A DNA stretch of 64,000 nucleotides, taken from NCBI GenBank assembly GCA_050249415.1, contig JBFWQO010000003.1, positions 22,814 through 86,813 of the forward strand, given 5' to 3'. The translations under genes were made by a program, and so were the position numbers. Below the pieces are notes generated by a model. It was not told the origin of the DNA. It ran no database searches and worked only from the letters and a program-made list of their open reading frames with translations. How positions within the stretch are numbered: position 1 is the stretch's first letter; the number at the start of each line of letters is the position of its first letter. This DNA comes from Steroidobacteraceae bacterium (GTDB lineage: Bacteria; Pseudomonadota; Gammaproteobacteria; Steroidobacterales; Steroidobacteraceae). Shown here piece after piece: positions 52,618-64,000 of this stretch.

Positions 52618-53852
52618 GTGCCCGCCTCCACGATCCTTGCACCATCGGCCAGGTCTTTGCCCGGCTCACGCACGACCTTCGTGCCGGCTTCGATTCCTTC
52701 GACGAGGGTGAGATCGCCGAACGGCTGCCCCCGTTTCACCTTGCGTGCACGCACGCGCCCGCCCTCGACGACGAACACGACATTCGCGTCCCCGTGCGAC
52801 GTCACGGCACTGGCAGGCACGAGTACACCCGCCGGCGGCGCGACGGTGTCCTGCGGCGCCTCGCCCGCGAGGAACGACACGCGCACGCCCATGTCGGGCA
52901 GGATGCGCGGGTCTTTCCGGTCGAGGCCGATGCGCACTTTCACGGTCGCCTTGCCGCGATCGGCGGTCGGAATGATCGCGATCACGTGCGCCGGAATCGT
53001 CCAGTCCTGGTACGCGTCGAGCACGGCCTCCGCGGGCCCGCCGACGACGACGCGATTGATGTACGCCTCGTTCACGTCGACTTCGACTTCGAGCGAATCC
53101 ATGTCGACGAGCGTGCCGATGCCCGTGCGCGTGAAGCCGCCGCCCGCCGAGAGCGGCGAGACGATCTCGCCGACCTGGGCCGCCTTGGCGATCACGACAC
53201 CGGCGAACGGCGCACGCACCGTCGTGTAGTTCAGCTGCACCCCGGCACTTTCGCGTTGCGCGGCCGCGACGTGCACGGCCCCGCGCTGCGCGGCGAGTTG
53301 CGCCGCGAGCGATTCGACCTGCGTACGCGCACTCTCCACGGCCTGAGCGGCGACGAGCTGGCGCGCGACGAGATCCTGCTGCCGCACGTAGTCGCGCTGT
53401 GCCTGGTCGAGCTCGCTCGAGTATTGCCCCACCCGCGCGCGCGCTTCGGCGAGCTGTGCATCGGCCTGGGCGAGCGCCGCGCGCTGCGAGCGTGACTCGA
53501 GGCGTGCCAGCACCTGGCCGGCCGCGACATGCTCACCTTCCTCGATCAGCACCTCGGTCAGTTTGCCGGTGATCTGCGCAGACACCGTCGCCTGGCGTCG
53601 TGCGGTGACATAGCCGGTCGCCTGCAGCACGGCCGCGGCGCCGGAGCCCTGGGCGGCGGGAGCCGAGGCGACCGCGACCTGAACGGCGACGGGCGCATGG
53701 GCGCTGCGCCACCCCCAGAATGCGCCGGCGGACAGTACGACGACCGCGGCAAGGCCACCGACCAGCCAGTGGCGGCGCGCCGACCCGTCGTCTTCGCTGC
53801 GATCGATGCGCAACTGGCCGAGCAGCTGTCCCTTGTCGCTCGTATCGTTCAT
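52614..53852 (-). CDS. Periplasmic adaptor (HlyD/MacA membrane-fusion family)
   Basis: N-terminal TM, lipoyl/coiled-coil hairpin (long Ala/Gln-rich helices), beta-barrel C-terminal part. First gene of the exporter operon. Confidence 0.85.
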   Translation of the reverse strand: MNDTSDKGQLLGQLRIDRSEDDGSARRHWLVGGLAAVVVLSAGAFWGWRSAHAPVAVQVAVASAPAAQGSGAAAVLQATGYVTARRQATVSAQITGKLTEVLIEEGEHVAAGQVLARLESRSQRAALAQADAQLAEARARVGQYSSELDQAQRDYVRQQDLVARQLVAAQAVESARTQVESLAAQLAAQRGAVHVAAAQRESAGVQLNYTTVRAPFAGVVIAKAAQVGEIVSPLSAGGGFTRTGIGTLVDMDSLEVEVDVNEAYINRVVVGGPAEAVLDAYQDWTIPAHVIAIIPTADRGKATVKVRIGLDRKDPRILPDMGVRVSFLAGEAPQDTVAPPAGVLVPASAVTSHGDANVVFVVEGGRVRARKVKRGQPFGDLTLVEGIEAGTKVVREPGKDLADGARIVEAGT

Positions 53853-53903
53853 GTTAAATGTTATATATTAATGTCTTACGAACTATTATTCATGCTTTAC
53901 TTG

Positions 53904-53987
53904 TGCCCCAGGCCGGACTCGAACCGGCACGACCTCGCGGTCAACGGATTTTAAGTCCGTAGCGTCTACCGATTTCGCCACCGGGGC
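53904..53987 (-). tRNA. leuZ: tRNA-Leu (anticodon UAA)
   Basis: The reverse complement folds as a class II tRNA. Acceptor GCCCCGG/CTGGGGC, D-arm GCGAAATCGGTAGACGC, anticodon stem-loop ACGGA-CTTAAAA-TCCGT, long variable arm, T-arm GCCGGTTCGAGTCCGGC. CCA is not encoded. Confidence 0.9.
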
Positions 53988-54032
53988 ATGGATGCACCAA
54001 GGACGGGCCGCCGCACATTATGCCGACAGGCG

Positions 54033-54106
54033 TGGAGGCTAGGGTCGGAATCGAACCGGCGTACACGGCTTTGCAGGCCGCTGCATGACCACTCTGCCAC
54101 CTAGCC
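54033..54106 (-). tRNA. cysT: tRNA-Cys (anticodon GCA)
   Basis: The reverse complement is GGCTAGGTGGCAGAGTGGTCATGCAGCGGCCTGCAAAGCCGTGTACGCCGGTTCGATTCCGACCCTAGCCTCCA. Anticodon loop CTGCAAA. CCA is encoded. Confidence 0.92.
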
Positions 54107-54124
54107 GGCGGACCCGAACGAGAC

Positions 54125-54142
54125 TGGAGCGGGAAACGAGAC
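54125..54142 (-). repeat. Orphan 18-nt copy of the 3' end of tRNA-Gly(GCC); att-type boundary repeat of the ICE
   Basis: The minus strand reads GTCTCGTTTCCCGCTCCA, which equals the last 18 nt of E. coli-type tRNA-Gly(GCC) (...GAGTTCGAGTCTCGTTTCCCGCTCCA). The bases 5' of it (CCTAGTAAAC) do not continue a tRNA. It lies 18 nt upstream of the tRNA-Cys 5' end. Confidence 0.8.
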
Positions 54143-54210
54143 GTTTACTAGGCGCGTAAGTCGTTGTTTCCCAAACAATTTCTTCGCCGAGGTGACCAGC
54201 GAAGACCTCA

Positions 54211-54239
54211 ATTGTAGCCTTGTTTTTCGTCCCCGGCAA
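54211..54239 (-). promoter_or_regulatory. Candidate sigma70 promoter facing outward from the ICE end toward tRNA-Cys/tRNA-Leu
   Basis: The minus strand reads TTGCCG-N17-TACAAT (-35 at 54239-54234, -10 at 54216-54211). About 60 nt inside the att repeat and about 100 nt upstream of the tRNA-Cys 5' end. Confidence 0.4.
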
Positions 54240-54245
54240 CAAGTT

Positions 54246-54275
54246 CGTCCAAAGAAATCCATCGACGTCCAAAGA
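54246..54275. repeat. Two direct copies of CGTCCAAAGA spaced 20 bp, just upstream of the outward promoter
   Basis: Copies at 54246-54255 and 54266-54275. The spacing equals two helical turns. Confidence 0.5.
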
Positions 54276-54915
54276 CGCACACTCCGCGCACCAGACCCGC
54301 ACCCCGCACATCGCCATCCGCGTGGACTCGAACTAGCCCCCCATATCCCGTTCTCTGCTTCCGCATCTTCACCGCGATGCCGACTAGGCAGCAGGCTTCC
54401 GATGTCGGGGCGATTCGAATGCCACCGTGGAAAGGTGCGCACCGCGCATCGCGGCGCCCATCTGCGCAAGCCACGCCGGAAGAACGCACACCCTAGCCAT
54501 GGTGCGTGGACGCGATTCTTTATGGATATATCAGCATGCCAGGATGAGCATGACAGGCGCGGATTCGGTGCGTCCGGCTGGACGTTGGATGACGATTGCC
54601 CTCCCCTTCGCACCCCTTGAGACCGTTGGCATATCAGGCCATACCCAGACGGTTTTGCAGAGGCCGCAAATTCTTACGACCCTGATAGCGAGAGCGTCAC
54701 TGTCGAGCCTGCGTCCTGATGCTCGGTCTTCTAGTCGATGAATTTTTACACATCGAGCACACGACGGCTACCAGTAGCGCCGACTGGTAAGAGGTACTCA
54801 AGCCCAATGACGAAGCCGCCCTCGGGGCTCGCGTCCTGCACAGACAACACGCCGATCATGAGGTCGGCGGCAAAGGAGTCGGCCATGTAGTTCTTGTCCT
54901 GGAAGGAGACGGAGC

Positions 54916-55671
54916 ATGCACGAGAACAAGAATGATGCACCCACATCAAAGGTGTTCTATCGCCCGATCGAAGCGTCCATCCGCTGGGCCGGGCTGCTGC
55001 GGTACGAGCAGGCGATCCTGGCCTCGATTTCGTCGCCCCGGAACCTGCCACTTTCGCTGGACTGCCCACGCTGGGGCGAACTGCGGCTGTACACCGAACG
55101 CATCTATGACGGCATTCTCAATGGGGAACTGCCATTCGGGCGGGACGGCATCACGACGCACGACACCGAACTGATCGACTCTCTCGATCTCACCGTCCGC
55201 CATGTCGATCTGAAGCGCTGGATGCGCCAGCACTACCCCGAACAGCGTCCAGGCTTTCTCTTCTCCCGCAGCGAGCGCATCACCCATCCCTTCATCTCGC
55301 TGGAGACCGGGCAAGCCATGCTGGTTGAACAGCTCGCCCTGAAATCCGCCTTGGAGCAGTCCAAGCGCCAACTTCGCGAGCTGCAGGACAAGCACGACGC
55401 GCTGCTCAAGCAGTCCACGGTGATTCCCGCCTGCGCGCAGTGCCCAATCAGCGATCGGGCCGAGGCCACCTACCTGAACATCATCGGGGGCATGCTGGAG
55501 TTGATGCTCGGCCAGTCGCCCTCGGGTGCGCCGTACTCCAGCTTCGAGACGCAAGAGGCCGTAGTCAGCGCACTGGTCGCCCATCACCACGGCGTCATGG
55601 GGATCGCCGAGCGGACATTGAACGGCAAGTTCGCCACGGCCCGGCGCCGGCTGCATAGCGCCACCCTCTGA
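54916..55671 (+). CDS. Outermost ICE gene, 251-aa protein of unknown fold; positional equivalent of the ICEclc regulator BisR
   Basis: Clean ATG ORF with a central coiled-coil-like segment (QLALKSALEQSKRQLRELQDKHDALLKQ). First gene inside the ICE end, immediately upstream of alpA. BisR equivalence rests on position and size only. Confidence 0.5.
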   Translation: MHENKNDAPTSKVFYRPIEASIRWAGLLRYEQAILASISSPRNLPLSLDCPRWGELRLYTERIYDGILNGELPFGRDGITTHDTELIDSLDLTVRHVDLKRWMRQHYPEQRPGFLFSRSERITHPFISLETGQAMLVEQLALKSALEQSKRQLRELQDKHDALLKQSTVIPACAQCPISDRAEATYLNIIGGMLELMLGQSPSGAPYSSFETQEAVVSALVAHHHGVMGIAERTLNGKFATARRRLHSATL

Positions 55672-55702
55672 AGATTTCCAGCTTGTATGTGCAGTCGCGG
55701 AG

Positions 55703-55746
55703 ATTGCATTTGCAATGTCTTTTCGCAGTCATGTCTATTGAATAGA
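55703..55746 (+). promoter_or_regulatory. Two short palindromes in the alpA upstream region (candidate operators)
   Basis: ATTGCA-TT-TGCAAT (55703-55716) and TCTATT-G-AATAGA (55734-55746). These lie 44-87 nt upstream of the alpA ATG. Confidence 0.3.
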
Positions 55747-55789
55747 GGTCACGCCAACAAACGCCACTGAGCGTTCAGGAGTGACCGCC

Positions 55790-56002
55790 ATGTCGCAAAC
55801 ACCTGTACTGCAACCAAACGAGCGCCGCATCCTGCGCCTGGAAGAAGTGGAAGCGAAGTCCGGCTTCAAGCGTGCCCACATCTACAACCTGATGAAGAAG
55901 CGCCAGTTCCCGCAAGCGCTGCGCTTGGGTGTGCGCGCGGTCGGCTGGGATTCCATCGAGATCGATCAGTGGATCGCCGAGCGCGTCAACAACCGGGCCT
56001 GA
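55790..56002 (+). CDS. alpA: AlpA-family (phage/ICE) transcriptional regulator
   Basis: RILRLEEVEAKSGFKRAHIYNLMKKRQFPQALRLGVRAVGWDSIEIDQWI. AGGAG SD 8 nt upstream of the ATG at 55790. Confidence 0.85.
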   Translation: MSQTPVLQPNERRILRLEEVEAKSGFKRAHIYNLMKKRQFPQALRLGVRAVGWDSIEIDQWIAERVNNRA

Positions 56003-56044
56003 CCCGTTCTCCCGCGGACCTTCCATCCTCACACGGAGAACGCC

Positions 56045-56920
56045 ATGCAGGTTGTATCCATCATTTCCACGAAAGGTGGCGTCGGCAAGACCACCACGGC
56101 AGCGAACCTGGGCGGACTCATCGCCGACGCGGGGCTGCGCGTGCTGCTGCTCGATCTCGACGTGCAGCCCACCTTGTCGTCCTACTACGAGTTGGCTCAC
56201 CGCGCGCTTGGAGGCATCTATGAGCTGCTGGCCTTCAACGAGCGCGACCTCGGCCAGCTCGTGTCCCGCACGACCGTCGCCGGCCTGGACCTGGTGCTGT
56301 CCAACGACCACCGCGGCGAGCTGAACACCTTGCTGCTGCACGCGCCGGACGGGCGTCTGCGGCTGCGGCACCTGCTGCCCGTGCTGGCACCCATCTACGA
56401 CCTGGTGCTGATCGACACCCAGGGCGCGCGCTCGGTGATGTTGGAGATGGCGGTGCTCGCCTCCGATATCGCGCTGTCGCCCGTGACCCCGGAAATTCTC
56501 GCCGCCCGCGAACTGCGACGCGGCACCATGCAGTTGCTCGAAGACATCGCGCCGTACCGGCATCTCGGCATCGAGCCGCCACCGCTGCACCTGCTCATCA
56601 ACCGCGTCCACCCCGTGTCGGCGAACGCCCGGCTGATTCAGCAGGCCCTGCGCGACCTGTTCCAAGACCACGCCGGCATCCGCGTGCTGACCACCGACGT
56701 GCCGGCCATCGAAGCCTATCCGCGCGCCGCAACGCGCGGCCTGCCGGTACACCGCGTCGAGTATCGCCAGCCGCCGGGCAGAGTCGCCCCCGCTGCGATC
56801 GACACCATGCGCAGCCTCGCCAGCGAATTGTTCCCGCAGTGGCAGCACCGATTTGCCACGGTATCCGGCCGCCCGCCATTTCCTCTTGATACCGGGAGGC
56901 CTCATGGCGAACGCACATGA
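56045..56920 (+). CDS. parA: ParA-family partition ATPase
   Basis: Deviant Walker A: VVSIISTKGGVGKTTTAANLG. LLLDLDVQ, LIDTQG. Confidence 0.9.
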   Translation: MQVVSIISTKGGVGKTTTAANLGGLIADAGLRVLLLDLDVQPTLSSYYELAHRALGGIYELLAFNERDLGQLVSRTTVAGLDLVLSNDHRGELNTLLLHAPDGRLRLRHLLPVLAPIYDLVLIDTQGARSVMLEMAVLASDIALSPVTPEILAARELRRGTMQLLEDIAPYRHLGIEPPPLHLLINRVHPVSANARLIQQALRDLFQDHAGIRVLTTDVPAIEAYPRAATRGLPVHRVEYRQPPGRVAPAAIDTMRSLASELFPQWQHRFATVSGRPPFPLDTGRPHGERT

Positions 56921-57152
56921 ACTGGCCCGAGGCCACCAGCGGCTGCGCGCCCTGATCGAGTTCGCAGTCGGCGAGGGCTGGCACGTCAAGCGCACGCCAG
57001 GCGGCCACCTCAAATTCACCAAGGCAGGTTGCGCCGCGATCTACACCAGTTCGACGGCCAGCGACCACCGCGCGTCCCTCAACGCCCGTGCGCAGATCCG
57101 CCGCGCCGAACGCGAGACCCGCCCTCCTGCACAGGGACGCAGTCATGGCTGA
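56904..57152 (+). CDS. Small HicA-like-fold protein nested between parA and the parB-like gene (position of shi in ICEclc)
   Basis: 82 aa. EGWHVKRTPGGHLKFTKAGCAAIYTSSTASDHRA resembles the HicA G-x-x-x-x-R-x-x-GSH-x-x-F core. Overlaps the parA 3' end by 17 nt and the parB-like start by 8 nt. Confidence 0.5.
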   Translation: MANAHELARGHQRLRALIEFAVGEGWHVKRTPGGHLKFTKAGCAAIYTSSTASDHRASLNARAQIRRAERETRPPAQGRSHG

Positions 57153-58779
57153 GCTGACCTCCCAGCAGATGGCCGGCAAGCTGCTTGCGGCCGGGTTCGA
57201 GCGCAGCGGCTCGTCTGCCTCGACTCTGAGCGACCCCATCGCCGACACGCCCATGGTCGTGACCCTGGATCAGTTGCGTCCCTACGACCATGACCCGCGC
57301 AAGAAGCGAAATCCGACCTACGAGGACATCAAGGCTTCCATCCGCGAGCGCGGCCTGGACGCGGCACCGGCCATCACGCGTCGGCCGGGCGAGGACCACT
57401 ACATCATCCGCAACGGTGGCAACACGCGCCTGGCGATCCTGCGCGAACTGTGGTCGGAGACCAAGGACGAGCAGTTTTTCCGCCTCTCGTGCCTGTTCCG
57501 CCCGTGGCCCAGCCGCGGCGAAGTCGTCATGCTGACCGGCCATCTGGCCGAAAACGAATTGCGCGGCGGCCTCACGTTCATCGAACGCGCCCTTGGCGTC
57601 GAGAAAGCGCGCGAGTTCTACGAGCAGGAAAGCAGCACCACCCTGAGCCAATCCGAGTTGGCCCGACGCCTCGCCGCCGATGGTTTCCCGGTCCAGCAGT
57701 CGCACATCAGCCGCATGAACGATGCGGTGCGCTACCTCCTACCGGCGATCCCCGCCGTGCTCTATGGCGGCCTCGGCCGCCACCAGGTCGAACGCCTGTC
57801 GGTCATGCGCAAAGCCTGCCTGCTCGCGTGGGAGCGCTACGCCAAGGGCCGCACGCTGGTACAGGACTTCGACGACTTCTTTCAGGAGGTGCTGTCGCAG
57901 TTCGACGCGCAGGCCGGCGAGTTCGCCCCCCAGCGCGTGCAGGACGAGCTGATCGGCCAAATGTCCGAGTTGCTCGGCATCGACTACGACGTGCTGGCGC
58001 TCGACCTCACCGAATCCGAAAGCCGCCATCGCGCCCTGGTCAGCGACCCGACCCCGCCATCGGCACCGCCCGCGCTGCCCGAGCCGGGCGCCATGGCACG
58101 CCCGCCCGCCGCACCAGCCCCAGCGACCCCGACGCCGGCGGCCACGCATGGGGCGCGTGAGCGCAAGGGCGATTCGGAAACGGACGACTCGCCTGCAGTC
58201 AGCCCCGTGGCTGCTCCTGGTGATCTGCTGCAGGAGCACATCGTTTCGCCCGCACCGACGACGGAACGGCTGCAATCCATTCAGCGGATGGTCGCCGACG
58301 AGCTGGGGGATGCGCTGCCCGATTTTTCGGCCAACGTCTTGCAGTCCATTCCTGTCCAGGCAGGCGGGCTCTATCCGATTTCCGACGTTTGGCACATCGA
58401 CGCGGGCTTGGACACGCCCGACCGCCTGCGCATCCACATCGCGCAGTTTGCACGCGAGATCGCGGGCGAGGCAGGCCTCGATCAGTGCATCGAGGACCGC
58501 GCGGACGGTATTGGTTTCGCATGCCATGCCGGCGCCCGTGCCCCGGCGCCGCTGGGTCGTGCCGCCCTGGCGCTGCTGGCGTGCCTGGCTGGTCAGCAGC
58601 CCGCCGAAGTCGGCCTGAACAGCGGGCAAGTCGTCATCGACCTGCCGGCGCTGCTTCACGGACAGGGGGACGCAAGCCGGCGTCTAAGCGACACCGCATT
58701 GGTCAAGCTGTTCCGGCTGCTGCGCCTGGCCCGCCGTCTGCTCGACTTGGACGCCAGCGCTGTGGACCTTGGAACGTGA
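57145..58779 (+). CDS. ICE ParB-family protein (ParB/Srx N-terminal domain; BisD-position gene)
   Basis: VTLDQLRPYDHDPR, IIRNGGNTRLAILREL (ParB box GGxxR). Long Pro/Ala-rich linker and a C-terminal domain of unknown fold. Confidence 0.8.
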   Translation: MAELTSQQMAGKLLAAGFERSGSSASTLSDPIADTPMVVTLDQLRPYDHDPRKKRNPTYEDIKASIRERGLDAAPAITRRPGEDHYIIRNGGNTRLAILRELWSETKDEQFFRLSCLFRPWPSRGEVVMLTGHLAENELRGGLTFIERALGVEKAREFYEQESSTTLSQSELARRLAADGFPVQQSHISRMNDAVRYLLPAIPAVLYGGLGRHQVERLSVMRKACLLAWERYAKGRTLVQDFDDFFQEVLSQFDAQAGEFAPQRVQDELIGQMSELLGIDYDVLALDLTESESRHRALVSDPTPPSAPPALPEPGAMARPPAAPAPATPTPAATHGARERKGDSETDDSPAVSPVAAPGDLLQEHIVSPAPTTERLQSIQRMVADELGDALPDFSANVLQSIPVQAGGLYPISDVWHIDAGLDTPDRLRIHIAQFAREIAGEAGLDQCIEDRADGIGFACHAGARAPAPLGRAALALLACLAGQQPAEVGLNSGQVVIDLPALLHGQGDASRRLSDTALVKLFRLLRLARRLLDLDASAVDLGT

Positions 58780-58794
58780 CTGAGGGAGACCAGC

Positions 58795-59355
58795 ATGTCC
58801 ACACCACACCCACTCAACCAGGCTGTCATCGCCCAAGCTCTCTATGACCTGCGCAATGGGCAACTGCGCCGCTGCAAGCTGATGGGGTTTGGCGAGGAAG
58901 AGCTGGGCGCCCTCAAGCATCCCGCGCTGATCAGCGTGCTGGCTAACGCCAGCGTCTCGTGGTGCTCCGTGACGGTCAACCGCGAAGTACTCCGGCGTCT
59001 GCTCAGGCAGGCGCAGGACGTGGAAAAGGAAATCGCCACGGTCGATCGCATGCTTAGGCTGGGCGCGAGCACCGAAATGGTGAGCCGTTTCTACGGCCTG
59101 ACCCACCAGGAAGTGGCGCTTCGCCGCGAAATCCTCGGCCTGCCCAAGCGCAAGGGCCGCCATCCCGTGCTGGACGAGAAGCAGGACACGGAGCTGTGGC
59201 AGCAATGGAAGGCCGTGACCAGCAGCAGGAACGTCGATCTCGAAGACGAGACCTCCATCCTCGATGCCGCCATGGACTTGGCTGAAGGCATGTCGCTGCC
59301 TTTATCGGTGGTCTGGGCCTCGATCAAGAGCTGGGTCGATCAGGGATTGGGTTGA
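58795..59355 (+). CDS. DUF2857-like ICE protein (BisC-position gene)
   Basis: 186 aa. Matches my memory of the DUF2857 family that follows ICE parB genes (LYDLRNGQLRRCKLMGFGEEELGAL...RFYGLTHQEVALRREILGL). Confidence 0.65.
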   Translation: MSTPHPLNQAVIAQALYDLRNGQLRRCKLMGFGEEELGALKHPALISVLANASVSWCSVTVNREVLRRLLRQAQDVEKEIATVDRMLRLGASTEMVSRFYGLTHQEVALRREILGLPKRKGRHPVLDEKQDTELWQQWKAVTSSRNVDLEDETSILDAAMDLAEGMSLPLSVVWASIKSWVDQGLG

Positions 59356-59357
59356 CC

Positions 59358-60605
59358 ATGGCCGTGGACGACACCGCACCACGTCGTGGCCCCATCGCAC
59401 TCGCAGACCTGTTCGACGCTGCGCTGAAAAACCTTGTGCCCAAGCCCAACGCCGACGCGCCCCCGCCCACACCCACGCCTGTCGCGATGCCCACGGGCCC
59501 GGCGTCTGGCGATGCCTTCCTGTTCAGCGGCAACCGGCACGAGTCCGTACCGCGGCGGCTGTTCCTCGACCGTCGCCTGACGCCGTTGGAGCGCAACGCC
59601 TGGCAGGTCTTCCGGCTGATGCAGGGCGACGATGGCGTGACGGCGTTCCCGACGTATGAACAGCTTCGGCCCTGGCTGGCCTCGATGCCCTGCGCCGGAC
59701 AGGCCTCGCACGAAACCGTGGCGCGAGCGCTGACGCTGCTGCGCCTGACCCGCTGGCTGAGCCTCGTGCGGCGGCGACGCGACCCCAAGAGTGGCCGCAT
59801 CCTCGGCAATCTGTACGTGCTACACGACGAACCACTGACCCCGTTCGAGGCCATGCAGCTCGACCCGGACTACCTGCAACTCGTCAGCCAGGCGCTCGGC
59901 CATTCCGCCAAGGCCGTGCAGATCGTGGGCCTGCACACCCTCAAGGAAATCGGCCAAGACCCGATGCTGGCCGGGCGCACCCTGCCGTCGAGGCTGCAAG
60001 TCCTGGCCGAACGCCTCGCCAGCCAGGGCGTCGGGGCGCACGAAAGTTATCCACAGGAGGACGCCACGCACGATTCCGAAGAAGGGGCGACGAGCCTTCT
60101 TTGGAATCCCGATGACCCCACTTCGGAATCCGAAGCAGGGCCGAAACCCGCGCCAGACGCCTCTCTTCGGAATCCGAAGCAGGCCCGTACAGTACGTAGT
60201 AGTCGTATTGATGAAGTACGTACTACCGCGCAGGCGCGCGTGCTGGACGACCTGCAATGGCCCAAGCGCTTCGCGGAACTGAAGGCAGAGCAGCAAACAG
60301 GTGCCAGAGTGGCATTGCAGCAAGTCGATGTTTCGCTCAGGCAGGCCGTGCTGGACGAATGGGCCACGCGATGCAGCAACCACGGCATCCGCAATCCTGC
60401 GGGGTATCTGTTCGGCATCATCCAGCGGGCCATCCATGGCGAGTTCAACGCCTGGGCCAAGAAAGACGCACCCTCGGCACCTGTCCCGCCAAACGAGCGG
60501 CCACCACCAGCGGCACCACCACCTCAACCGCAGGGCAAGCCTGTGCCGCCAGAAGTCGCCAGGCAGCACATCGAGCGGCTACGCAAGCTGCTCGCCAGCA
60601 AGTGA
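59358..60605 (+). CDS. STY4528-family pathogenicity-island/ICE putative replication protein
   Basis: PRRLFLDRRLTPLERNAWQVFRLM... winged-helix-like N-domain. Low-complexity middle. Pro-rich C-terminus. Family assignment from memory and synteny. Confidence 0.6.
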   Translation: MAVDDTAPRRGPIALADLFDAALKNLVPKPNADAPPPTPTPVAMPTGPASGDAFLFSGNRHESVPRRLFLDRRLTPLERNAWQVFRLMQGDDGVTAFPTYEQLRPWLASMPCAGQASHETVARALTLLRLTRWLSLVRRRRDPKSGRILGNLYVLHDEPLTPFEAMQLDPDYLQLVSQALGHSAKAVQIVGLHTLKEIGQDPMLAGRTLPSRLQVLAERLASQGVGAHESYPQEDATHDSEEGATSLLWNPDDPTSESEAGPKPAPDASLRNPKQARTVRSSRIDEVRTTAQARVLDDLQWPKRFAELKAEQQTGARVALQQVDVSLRQAVLDEWATRCSNHGIRNPAGYLFGIIQRAIHGEFNAWAKKDAPSAPVPPNERPPPAAPPPQPQGKPVPPEVARQHIERLRKLLASK

Positions 60606-60649
60606 GCAGGCGTGCAAGACGGTGAAGTGGCTGCCGGTGGCTTTCAGTA

Positions 60650-60672
60650 GAGCTATCCCCTGGGGATAGTTC
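60650..60672. repeat. 23-bp palindrome, copy 1 (one arm mismatch)
   Basis: GAGCTATCCCCTGGGGATAGTTC. Starts 44 nt after the stop of the STY4528-like gene. Confidence 0.9.
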
Positions 60673-60780
60673 CACTGACGGCTACGACGTCGAACCGCTG
60701 CACGCCGGGCCTGGATCGCCTGCCGCGGATCGGCCTTGTCCGCGCTGATCCGGGTGTGCAGCGTTCCTTGGCGCTCCATG

Positions 60781-60803
60781 GAGCTATCCCCAGGGGATAG
60801 CTC
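60781..60803. repeat. 23-bp perfect palindrome, copy 2
   Basis: GAGCTATCCCCAGGGGATAGCTC. Ends 117 nt upstream of the TIGR03761-like gene start. Confidence 0.9.
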
Positions 60804-60920
60804 GCGCCACATGCAACCACCGCGCCCTGAACCGGGGACGGGCGGGTTTCGGTTTGTTGACTGACTGCCTTCCGCTTCTTGCCGAAGCTGGCCGCTCTTT
60901 TCCAACAACGAGCGGACACC

Positions 60921-61703
60921 ATGGCAACGACCAATGAACCCTTGCAACTGAATCTCGGCTCCTTGCGCAGCGCGATGTCGCTGACGCTGCACACGCATCA
61001 CGCCTCGCGCATCTGGCACGGCCGCGCCGCTGCCGAGGGGCGACCCGGCATCGTCGGCTTGAACGGCTACATCGCCCAGATGAACAAGATGCGGCGCGGC
61101 TCGGAGCAGGATGACCCGTACAGCGATTTCTGGACGCTGCGCATCGAGGACAAGCTCGACCAGACCAAGGCCACGCTGCAATCGCTGCGCGAACAGGTGG
61201 ACCAGGCACTCGCGAGCGTTCCGCCGGCACTGACCCTGGGCGAAAACCTTAACGTGCAACCCGTCAAGCTGCCGCTGTTCGTCAATGCGCAGTTGGGCTT
61301 TGCCGCCGTCTATCTGTTGGCCGACTACGACGACATTGCCCGCAAGCTGATCCTCGCGCATCACACCGCACTCATCGACCGCAGCACTTTGGAGCGTTGG
61401 CTCAACGAGGGCGCGCACGCACTGCGCAGTCTTTTCAGCCTGGCGCAGCAGTACCGCTACTCGGGCTGCACCCGCGACGACTTCGCGGCGAAGAACGCTG
61501 CAGCTCGGGCCGCACTGGAAAAATTCGGCGAACTGCCGCAGGACGTGCTGGAAGGCACGCGCCGCTCGAAGTTCGCGCCGCCCACCGTGCGCCGTGGCCT
61601 GCAGCTGCGCAGTGACGGTCCTGCCGCGGCACCTTCCCCCAGCGACGAGGCCGCCACCACGGAGGCCCCCGAAGCGACGGGCGGCGAGGACGCGCAGGCA
61701 TGA
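60921..61703 (+). CDS. PFL_4669/TIGR03761-like ICE protein (InrR-position gene)
   Basis: MATTNEPLQLNLGSLRSAMSLTLHTHHASRIWHGR... Family recalled from ICE synteny, upstream of DUF3158-ssb-topB. Confidence 0.6.
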   Translation: MATTNEPLQLNLGSLRSAMSLTLHTHHASRIWHGRAAAEGRPGIVGLNGYIAQMNKMRRGSEQDDPYSDFWTLRIEDKLDQTKATLQSLREQVDQALASVPPALTLGENLNVQPVKLPLFVNAQLGFAAVYLLADYDDIARKLILAHHTALIDRSTLERWLNEGAHALRSLFSLAQQYRYSGCTRDDFAAKNAAARAALEKFGELPQDVLEGTRRSKFAPPTVRRGLQLRSDGPAAAPSPSDEAATTEAPEATGGEDAQA

Positions 61704-62227
61704 GCGATCCGAACCGCGACACCCGCTACTTCCACCCCCTGCAACAGACAGCTTTCATGAAGCTGGAACATGCCGCCTCTCTAAAAGGCCTTTTGAAGCC
61801 TTTTAAGGGTAAGGGGGATCTTGAGGCTTGGGCCAGCCAGTGCTTCGGCATGCGCGACGAGTTGATTGCCCTGGCGCAGCGTCAGGTGCTGCAACAGGCC
61901 CTCGGGCATCCCTTCCACCTGCTGCCCATCGAACTGGCCCAGCAGACCACTGGCGCAGGCACGGCGTTTCTGCGCTGGCGCAAGCACGACCGCTCGGCCA
62001 TGGGCGTCACCTTGTGGCAAGAGCTGATGGCGAGCACCAGCACGCCGGTCAACCTGCTGGCCGACCTGCACGCCATCGAGCTTCAGCGCATTACGCTGAA
62101 CATGCAGATCAGCCTGTTGCACACCTTGGGCAGGCAGGCCCAGGAGTGCGCCAGCAAGGCCGCCGAGGCGGAAGACGCCTACCTGCGCCGGCTCAAGTCC
62201 ACGCCAGCCGCCATGCGTGATCGGTGA
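61700..62227 (+). CDS. DUF3158-like ICE protein
   Basis: 175 aa. Its ATG overlaps the preceding stop. Synteny between the TIGR03761-like gene and ssb. Confidence 0.55.
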   Translation: MSDPNRDTRYFHPLQQTAFMKLEHAASLKGLLKPFKGKGDLEAWASQCFGMRDELIALAQRQVLQQALGHPFHLLPIELAQQTTGAGTAFLRWRKHDRSAMGVTLWQELMASTSTPVNLLADLHAIELQRITLNMQISLLHTLGRQAQECASKAAEAEDAYLRRLKSTPAAMRDR

Positions 62228-62300
62228 TCGCGCCGGGCAACCCAGCACGCGCCCGCCACCGACCAGGTGCGGGTATTTCAACCACCACGGAGATTGCAAC

Positions 62301-62753
62301 ATGAGCACGCATTTTTCTGGCGAGGGCAACATCGGTTCGCCCCCCGAGTACCGGGAGTTCCCCAACGGCAACGACGAGCCCAGCCGCCTTTTGCGCCTGA
62401 ACGTCTATTTCGACAACCCCATTCCCAAGAAGGATGGCAGCTTCGAGGACCGCGGCGGCTTCTGGGCGCCGGTGGAAGTCTGGCACCGCGACGCCGCGCA
62501 CTGGAAGGACCTGTACCAGAAAGGCATGCGTGTCCTGGTCGTCGGCCGCATGGAGCGCGAACCCTGGACGGACAACGAGGATCAGCCGCGCGAGACCTGG
62601 CAGATCAACGCGCGCAGCGTCGGCATCCTGCCGTTCCGCATCGAGTCCGTGACCCTCAGCCCCAGGCAGCAGGAGACCACGCAGGACACGCAGCCGAATC
62701 CCCAGGCCGCCCAGGAACCGGCAGCGCCGAAGGAGCCGAAGCGCAGGAAGTGA
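62301..62753 (+). CDS. ssb: ICE single-stranded DNA-binding protein (OB fold) lacking the acidic C-terminal tip
   Basis: FSGEGNIGSPPEYREFPNG...FWAPVEVWHRDAAHWKDLYQKGMRVLVVGRMEREPWTD...TWQINARSVG. The tail is Gln/Pro-rich and ends KEPKRRK. Confidence 0.8.
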   Translation: MSTHFSGEGNIGSPPEYREFPNGNDEPSRLLRLNVYFDNPIPKKDGSFEDRGGFWAPVEVWHRDAAHWKDLYQKGMRVLVVGRMEREPWTDNEDQPRETWQINARSVGILPFRIESVTLSPRQQETTQDTQPNPQAAQEPAAPKEPKRRK

Positions 62754-63027: not shown

Positions 63028-64000
63028 ATGCGGCTGTTCTTGTGCGAGAAGCCCTCCCAGGGCAAAGACATTGGTCGAATCCTCGGCGCGACGCAGCGCG
63101 GTGAAGGCTGTCTCAGCGGCTCCGGCGTCACCGTTACCTGGTGCATCGGCCATCTCGTAGAAGCGGCAGCTCCCGAGGTCTATGACGCAGCGCTCAAGCG
63201 CTGGTCGCTGGAGCAGTTGCCCATCGTTCCCCAGCAGTGGCGGGTCGAGGTCAAACCGAAGACCGCCACGCAATTCAAGGTCGTCAAGGCGCTTCTGGCG
63301 AAGGCGACCCATCTGGTCATCGCCACCGATGCCGACCGCGAGGGCGAGCTGATCGCCCGCGAGATCATCGACCTGTGCGGCTACCGCGGCCCCATCGAGC
63401 GGCTATGGCTGTCGGCGCTCAACGATGCCTCGATCCGTACCGCGCTCGGCAAGCTGCGGCCGTCGTCCGACACGCTGCCGATGTACTACTCGGCACTGGC
63501 GCGCTCACGGGCGGACTGGCTCGTGGGCATGAACCTCAGCCGGTTGTTCACCGTGCTGGGCCGGCAGGCAGGCTACGACGGCGTGCTGTCGGTCGGGCGC
63601 GTCCAGACGCCGACGCTCAAACTCGTCGTGGACCGCGACCGCGAGATCGCGGCCTTCAAGTCGGTGCCGTTCTGGGCCATCGACGTGTCCCTTTCCGCAG
63701 GCGGACAGACTTTCAGCGCGCAGTGGGTTCCGCCCGATGGCTGCACCGACGACGCCGGCCGCTGCCTGCAGCAGCCCATCGCCCAGCAGGCCGCGCAGCA
63801 GATCCGCACTGCGGGTAGCGCCCAGGTGGTATCGGTCGAGACCGAACGCGTGCGCGAAGGCCCACCGCTGCTGTTCGATCTGGGCACCTTGCAGGAGGTT
63901 TGTTCCAAGCAGCTTGGGCTGGACGTGCAGGAGACCCTGGAGATCGCCCAGGCCCTGTACGAGACGCACAAGGCCACCACATACCCACGCTCAGATTCCG
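63028..64000 (+). CDS. topB: DNA topoisomerase III (3' end beyond the window)
   Basis: Own translation of frame 1 from the ATG at 63028. It is absent from the ORF track because no stop occurs in the window. MRLFLCEKPSQGKDI (TOPRIM), IATDADREGELIA, GRVQTPTLKLVVDRDREI. Confidence 0.9.
   Translation, partial: MRLFLCEKPSQGKDIGRILGATQRGEGCLSGSGVTVTWCIGHLVEAAAPEVYDAALKRWSLEQLPIVPQQWRVEVKPKTATQFKVVKALLAKATHLVIATDADREGELIAREIIDLCGYRGPIERLWLSALNDASIRTALGKLRPSSDTLPMYYSALARSRADWLVGMNLSRLFTVLGRQAGYDGVLSVGRVQTPTLKLVVDRDREIAAFKSVPFWAIDVSLSAGGQTFSAQWVPPDGCTDDAGRCLQQPIAQQAAQQIRTAGSAQVVSVETERVREGPPLLFDLGTLQEVCSKQLGLDVQETLEIAQALYETHKATTYPRSDS

Follow-up and report, generated by a model that had tools for sequence, protein, structure and literature searches.

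An ICEclc-family element inserted in tRNA-Gly of a Steroidobacteraceae tRNA operon probably brings tRNA-Cys and tRNA-Leu(UAA) under its outward-facing promoter

Results

The tRNA genes and the att core at the junction

The window, a stretch of 64,000 nucleotides from a Steroidobacteraceae genome, carries on its minus strand a tRNA-Cys(GCA) gene (54033..54106) and, after a gap of 45 nt, a tRNA-Leu(UAA) gene (53903..53987), the second and third genes of a native gly-cys-leu operon. Both were called by ARAGORN and matched the Rfam tRNA model with 58.4 and 58.1 bits, respectively; the 3' end of tRNA-Leu falls at 53903 according to ARAGORN and at 53904 according to Rfam. Upstream of tRNA-Cys on the same strand lies an 18-nt spacer of chromosomal DNA, GTCTCGTTCGGGTCCGCC (54107..54124), preceded by GTCTCGTTTCCCGCTCCA (54125..54142), an 18-bp copy of the 3' end of tRNA-Gly that constitutes the attL-type core at the junction between an ICE and the chromosome. 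This succession, read from the letters in the first-pass annotation, was confirmed by the sequence and by ARAGORN. The 18-mer has a single exact match in the window, and shuffled sequences gave on average 0.08 matches with up to three mismatches. The first-pass annotation took it for the att core of ICEclc, and the direct repeat of that element is indeed quoted as GTCTCGTTTCCCGCTCCA, letter for letter (PMC10732049).

Only 50 AT-rich nucleotides (53853-53902) separate tRNA-Leu from the start codon of macA. As this gap is short and contains no obvious hairpin, transcription of the tRNA operon may extend into the efflux genes past the macA start.

Gene content of the element in the window

Below 53900 the window is ordinary chromosome with a G+C content of 68-72%, encoding a MacA-type adaptor, ABC/FtsX permeases and ccm genes. 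Above 54142 the G+C content is 60-67% and all genes lie on the plus strand, pointing away from the junction; this DNA is the integrase-distal (ParA) end of an element of the ICEclc/PFGI-1 class. Its first gene (54916..55671) encodes a 251-aa protein of no known family, with no Pfam or NCBIfam match, which has an exact copy in Alcaligenes sp. SMD-FA and whose 90%-identity cluster includes P. aeruginosa, Xylella, Bordetella, Achromobacter and Thauera. It is followed by a gene for an AlpA-type small regulator of 70 aa (55790..56002), recognised by Pfam PF05930 on the gene call in loci L086 and L001, which show 0 mismatches to the window. Next come parA (291 aa), an overlapping 82-aa gene and a PFGI-1-type parB (56045..58779), identified by NCBIfam ParA and by TIGR03764 (395 bits), an order that we take to be the parA-shi-parB of ICEclc. 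At 58795..62753, NCBIfam and Pfam models revealed genes for a DUF2857 protein, an STY4528-family replication protein (NF040582, 401 bits), a PFL_4669/AcaB ICE protein (TIGR03761, 288 bits), a DUF3158 protein and an SSB, with a score of 257 bits for PRK08182. The last gene (63028..64000) is the start of one for a 670-aa TopB-type topoisomerase with Toprim and Topoisom_bac domains, as judged from the gene call in L001, and the ICE extends through it past the end of the window. The core genes of the ICEclc family, namely the parA/parB module and those for the PFL_4669-type and STY4528-type proteins, SSB and TopB, are all present and, together with the DUF3158 gene, bear out the proposal that an ICEclc-type element abuts the 18-mer.

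The far end of the element

The intact tRNA-Gly(GCC) gene, its promoter and the integrase had been predicted to lie at the far end of the ICE, outside the window, and they were found there, on the same contig and 91.5 kb away. This end was traced from the UvrC protein of an ICE-free relative (L005), a member of whose cluster is encoded on the window's own record, JBFXBL010000004.1 (330,960 bp). Window positions (w) convert to record positions (r) as r = 308,148 - w, with 0 mismatches across 12.7 kb, and the far-end DNA, L095, covers record positions 150,011-171,834. It contains, in this order, uvrC, pgsA, a TTGACT-16-TACAAT promoter, tRNA-Gly(GCC), two strong hairpins, the integrase gene and cargo. 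The intact tRNA-Gly(GCC) has the same orientation as the tRNAs of the window and ends with GCCTCGTTTCCCGCTCCA at L095 12510-12527. Counted from the first base beyond tRNA-Gly through the last base of the window core, the ICE measures 91,486 bp.

The integrase gene lies on the strand of tRNA-Gly and begins 227 nt beyond it. It encodes a tyrosine recombinase of 647 aa in which Arm-DNA-bind_3, Phage_int_M and Phage_integrase domains were recognised and whose 90%-identity cluster is made up mostly of P. aeruginosa integrases. The cargo beside it (L095 14749-21665) comprises two LysR regulators, an HTH protein, an IS200-type Y1 transposase, Usp, SulP and NhaA; no clc/amn catabolic genes were seen in this cargo region or in the window.

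The second copy of the 18-mer expected by the first-pass annotation was therefore present at the 3' end of a tRNA-Gly(GCC) gene beside a tyrosine recombinase gene, but with 17/18 rather than 18/18 identity: position 2 is T in GTCTCGTTTCCCGCTCCA and C in GCCTCGTTTCCCGCTCCA. This position is T in every copy of this ICE end and C in tRNA-Gly of the ICE-free relatives. Position 2 of the window core is thus ICE-derived, and from position 8 onward the core is chromosome-derived in other hosts; together these place the strand exchange between core positions 2 and 8. This agrees with the single mismatch, confined to the tRNA-side repeat, that has been reported for 50 P. aeruginosa elements (PMC10732049).

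An inverted repeat, TACAGAC..GTCTGTA, and the hairpin AAAAAAGGAGCTTCGGCTCCTTTTTT occupy the region between the core and the integrase gene (L095 12528-12600). The second of the two hairpins (L095 12568-12597) is GC-rich, is followed by a U-run and gave a fold z-score of -5.3 against shuffles; the terminator scan found no match at the integrase end because the A-run and the U-run pair with each other. The inverted repeat and the hairpin recur in attP-like or tandem junctions of related elements (L144, L175, L124, L098 and L101). In the window's element, the attP predicted for the excised circle would consist of the end of the sX8 sequence described below, the core and ATATATGATCTACAG.

The unoccupied site in ICE-free relatives

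The closest genomes were Steroidobacteraceae MAGs, in which the MacA homologue is 73-86% identical. Five ICE-free relatives carry tRNA-Gly(GCC), a spacer of 18-19 nt, tRNA-Cys, tRNA-Leu(UAA) and macA in order, and their tRNA-Gly is preceded by uvrC, pgsA and a conserved TTGACT/TACAAT promoter; they thus have the glyW-cysT-leuZ-type order behind pgsA, with one promoter upstream of Gly. The order pgsA-glyW(GCC)-cysT(GCA)-leuZ(UAA), which the first-pass annotation had invoked for E. coli, was seen in the annotated record of strain K-12. Among the five relatives tRNA-Cys(GCA) is invariant and the tRNA-Leu(UAA) of the window has near-identical copies, and in L005, the closest of them, the Gly-Cys spacer is letter-identical to that of the window. 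The claim that tRNA-Gly stands directly upstream of this tRNA-Cys where the ICE is absent is therefore well founded. Judging by the length of the spacers, the three tRNAs are probably co-transcribed as one operon.

Other arrangements were seen in some ICE-free relatives, where tRNA-Cys and tRNA-Leu are separated by an insertion of 1.9 or 0.56 kb or the three tRNAs are rearranged (L006 4013-5885, L009 3280-3839 and L011 4735-5959); the operon is therefore broken at further points within the Steroidobacteraceae.

Other copies of this ICE end

Copies of the ICE end were located through further contigs that encode the exact 251-aa protein, among them the complete genome CP110108.1 (Alcaligenes sp. 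SMD-FA). The copies and the window share about 780 bp of identical sequence; the identity ends precisely at the 18-mer, and at least five unrelated flanks follow. Positions 54143-61671 of the window align to 5228-12756 of L085, the locus of Alcaligenes sp. SMD-FA, a betaproteobacterium; this copy is 99.987% identical across 7,547 nt, the sole differing base lying inside the core, and such near-identity points to a very recent transfer between classes. The core of L085 reads GTCTCGTCTCCCGCTCCA, and the bases at which cores vary are those towards the chromosome. In L087 (1-202) a 16/18 core, GTCTCGTTTCCACCTCCA, connects this ICE end to a coding region, and this insertion is therefore at a secondary, non-tRNA site. 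Neither megablast nor blastn gave a match to the ICE end among the complete E. coli genomes searched. One metagenomic host flank (L189 237-546) contains group II intron domains (RF02001 and RF01998) about 1.2 kb past the att core.

Two assemblies, represented by two protein accessions, carry the occupied site. In a third assembly of the same species, GCA_050174795.1, the contigs on either chromosomal side both end precisely at the 16 nt of the core that are shared (L002 1-16 and L096 12510-12527), which fits a mixture of occupied and empty sites in the sample, or an ICE binned elsewhere.

An outward-facing promoter and an sX8-family RNA at the ICE end

A promoter scan identified a sigma-70-type promoter, TTGCCG-17-TACAAT, at 54211..54239 on the minus strand (-10 at 54216-54211). 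It lies 68 nt inside the ICE and faces outwards, 98 nt upstream of tRNA-Cys, and 114 bp separate the start of its -35 element from the outer end of the core. In the scanned region (53700-56100) this was one site against 0.6 expected, a count that is not significant alone. Conservation was assessed in 48 core-bearing ICE ends, the window and 47 loci taken from contigs of viral and metagenome origin, in which the adjacent protein is 72-100% identical and which amount to 35 distinct sequences over the 125 nt inside the core. The elements TTG(C/G/T)CG and TA(C/T)AAT, with their 17-nt spacing, are kept in all inspected ends of the 35 variants, and the sequence of the spacer and the flanks varies. 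This conservation could partly reflect integrase arm sites instead of promoter function. Just upstream of the -35, two direct repeats of TCTTTGGACG lie 20 nt apart (54246..54255 and 54266..54275, minus strand), and TTGGAC(G) occurs twice in diverged ICE ends as well; the repeats could be candidate arm-type sites for the integrase or sites for a regulator.

The DNA 5' of the 18-mer had been described as not tRNA-like. ARAGORN called no tRNA there, in agreement with that description, but the same DNA is a full-length match to an Rfam small RNA, sX8 (RF02227; 54123..54204, minus strand), covering model positions 1-82 of 82 and scoring 89.9 bits where the gathering score is 50 (E = 7e-17, calculated over the whole window). 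The model starts about 6-7 nt past the -10, and its last 20 nt cover the att core and end 2 nt beyond it. The Rfam covariance model matched at the same place in each of 20 other ICE ends examined. For sX8 of Xanthomonas campestris pv. vesicatoria, dRNA-seq gave a start site and Northern blots showed forms of 82 and 118 nt (PMC3300014). The 82-nt form stops just past the CCA, whereas the 118-nt form extends 36 nt beyond the core region, approximately the length of the terminator hairpins that follow the core in several host flanks. Homologues of sX8 were reported in B. xenovorans LB400, Acidovorax JS42 and B. petrii (PMC3300014).

From its position and extent, sX8 appears to be the leader transcript of the ICE outward promoter, with the att core contained in it. 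B. petrii carries clc-like islands (PMC2717098). Such islands are present in B. xenovorans LB400 and Acidovorax JS42 as well. The identity of sX8 with the leader would explain the distribution of sX8 that has been called erratic, and would give the promoter of ICEclc-type elements an independently mapped start site. Our literature search found no publication linking sX8 to Pcirc, the outward promoter of ICEclc, or to conjugative elements. The single-sequence fold of the leader was no better than that of shuffles (z = -0.84), and in the alignment fold one pair only showed a compensatory change; given these weak fold statistics, we make no structural claim past the Rfam match. The scan flagged a hairpin at 54205-54181 as terminator-like, but its U-tract is not conserved in relatives, and there appears to be no convincing terminator between the start site and tRNA-Cys.

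Genes downstream of related ICE ends

Among the ICE ends with a flank of at least 60 nt, 18 of 42 (the window counted, and not all of them independent) have downstream tRNA genes: in 16 the next gene is tRNA-Cys(GCA), in many cases with tRNA-Leu(UAA) after it, and the remaining two have tRNA-Glu. In many of these hosts the core is separated from tRNA-Cys by a terminator-like hairpin, at times together with a recognisable promoter. There, tRNA-Gly and tRNA-Cys are probably separate transcription units, which leaves the bare 18-nt spacer of the window as the clearest case of a truly split operon.

Discussion

An ICEclc-family element has inserted into the tRNA-Gly of this operon and, in our judgement, tRNA-Cys and tRNA-Leu are probably now transcribed from its outward promoter. 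The first-pass annotation had the two tRNAs stranded tens of kilobases from their promoter; this is correct for the native promoter, 91.5 kb away, but not for the ICE promoter, which faces them from a distance of 98 nt. Remote as the native promoter is, the two tRNAs are probably not orphaned.

The succession of events begins with the ICE, which integrated in tRNA-Gly, the first gene of the pgsA-linked tRNA-Gly/tRNA-Cys/tRNA-Leu(UAA) operon of a Steroidobacteraceae genome, restoring tRNA-Gly at the integrase end and leaving an 18-bp copy of the tRNA 3' end at the ParA end. The 18-nt spacer before tRNA-Cys leaves no room for another promoter. Transcription starting at the ICE promoter, at about 54204, would run through the sX8 leader and the core into tRNA-Cys and then tRNA-Leu, meeting no terminator; that it enters the tRNA genes in this organism is what we infer from the arrangement of the locus. 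RNase P and the enzymes that trim 3' ends would release both tRNAs as usual. Such a transcript would include the native spacer and the authentic 3' end of tRNA-Gly, so that tRNA-Cys should be processed in an unaltered context. What would change is regulation: the native promoter, with 10/12 consensus matches and a GC-rich stretch after the -10, would be replaced by one with a weaker -35 and a different discriminator. In hosts with a terminator after tRNA-Gly, the promoter would yield the short sX8 alone. We found no publication on ICE-borne promoters driving downstream tRNAs in our literature search.

In the excised circle the promoter would point across attP to the integrase gene, as described for Pcirc. 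However, the hairpin between core and integrase gene should terminate tRNA-Gly transcripts and most of the transcription from the outward promoter in the circle, which sits awkwardly with the published role of Pcirc in driving the integrase. This conflict keeps open the reading in which the effect of the outward promoter on host genes in the integrated state is what matters. It is possible, although we hold the idea only tentatively, that the promoter and sX8 module acts as a stand-in operon head: with its promoter and an RNA whose end is the authentic tRNA-Gly 3' end, it would keep downstream tRNA genes, in most cases tRNA-Cys alone or with tRNA-Leu, transcribed and correctly processed. If so, this ICE family would be able to land in the first gene of an essential tRNA operon, and the tRNAs would be under ICE-borne control while the element stays integrated. 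Such a rescue may matter solely in lineages with a tight spacer.

An alternative that accepts the insertion holds that tRNA-Cys and tRNA-Leu(UAA) are silent or weakly expressed here, that other copies supply the cell and that the promoter yields only the short sX8. The terminator-like flag on the hairpin right after the start site and the 82-nt form of sX8, which ends just past the CCA, speak for it, and the recency of the insertion, apparent from the near-identical Alcaligenes copy, makes the intactness of the tRNAs uninformative about their use. Yet the U-tract behind that hairpin is not conserved, the 118-nt form in Xanthomonas passes the core, Pcirc of ICEclc drives a reporter past attB, and the occupied site is carried by two assemblies, so that this state is viable. 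A further argument against this explanation is that E. coli possesses only one tRNA-Cys gene, a copy number that is common, and we consider the explanation unlikely.

Other explanations question the junction itself. A metagenomic chimera, in which a foreign, Alcaligenes-like ICE was joined to the contig through the shared tRNA-Gly sequence, would suit a source that is a metagenome-assembled genome, an ICE 99.99% identical to a betaproteobacterial copy and a third assembly of the same species that breaks exactly at the core on both sides. We rejected it as very improbable, because only 16 nt are common to the ICE-borne and native sequences at the window junction, too short a stretch for an assembly error to bridge, because both junctions are exact and form complementary halves of one conserved locus, and because the occupied arrangement recurs in a second assembly. 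The notion that the 18-mer is what remains of a degenerate tRNA-Gly gene, or matches by chance, with no site-specific integration, agrees with the lack of a detectable tRNA 5' of it but is hardly credible: the 18-mer is exact, as compared with 0.08 shuffle matches even with three mismatches, ICE sequence begins exactly there in several hosts, and the intact partner copy and the integrase stand 91.5 kb away. A tRNA-Gly pseudogene was rejected on these grounds.

Regarding the preferred reading, of insertion followed by transcription from the ICE promoter, the insertion itself is ordinary, since an ICE at this att site is textbook ICEclc biology, and a tRNA-Cys beside a clc-like insertion is not new either, as it appears in the legend to Fig. 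6 of a B. petrii study (PMC2717098). The locus adds to the ICEclc family a new member in an unusual host, nearly identical to the Alcaligenes copy, and represents a clean case showing that this family can split a tightly packed, probably essential tRNA operon. It also raises the idea that, upon integration, tRNA-Cys and tRNA-Leu(UAA) exchange a native promoter tuned to growth rate for that of the ICE; such a swap could burden carriers of the element with a fitness cost or a dependency.

Comparison with known systems

ICEclc of Pseudomonas knackmussii B13 and the PAGI-2 family of P. aeruginosa share with the element described here the same 18-bp att repeat at the 3' end of tRNA-Gly, a long P4-type integrase beside the tRNA that reads inward (judged here by length, domains and place), an outward promoter, here a predicted one, about 114 bp from the far end, and the ParA, ParB, PFL_4669, SSB and TopB core genes. 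ICEclc differs in size (103 kb vs 91.5 kb here), in host, which here is a Steroidobacteraceae MAG, and in cargo, which here consists of LysR, SulP, NhaA, Usp and IS200-type transposase genes by the integrase gene. ICEclc is 102,843 bp long and its Pcirc is listed at 102,729; presumably, given this length, Pcirc lies as far from the ICE end as the -35 of the window (114 bp). Likened by position and through reviews, the window promoter would sit in the place of Pcirc: TTGCCG-17-TACAAT stands where Pcirc would be expected, and the start of a homologous transcript has been mapped in Xanthomonas. Pcirc is described as attL-proximal and outward-facing (PMC5812530), and integration of ICEclc turns on a promoterless reporter downstream of attB (PMC6561031).

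The clc-like elements GI1-GI3/ICE-GI3 of Bordetella petrii have likewise integrated at tRNA-Gly, with an 18-bp duplication and a tRNA-Cys adjoining the site, but there the repeat is followed by an inverted repeat before tRNA-Cys, in contrast to the bare 18 nt here, and transcription of tRNA-Cys is not discussed in that article (PMC2717098). B. petrii is also among the few genomes with an sX8 homologue (PMC3300014). The sX8 RNA of Xanthomonas campestris pv. vesicatoria 85-10 (RF02227) is matched here by the full-length model with the same promoter-to-start geometry; it was described as an orphan, HrpX-induced RNA of erratic distribution, with no link to an ICE att site or Pcirc (PMC3300014), and the transcript proposed here would differ from it by entering tRNA genes instead of stopping at a terminator. 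Finally, the pgsA-glyW-cysT-leuZ locus of E. coli has the same gene order and anticodons, with uvrC-pgsA upstream, as the operon split here, although its spacers measure 54 and 12 nt, compared with 18 and 45 nt in this operon.
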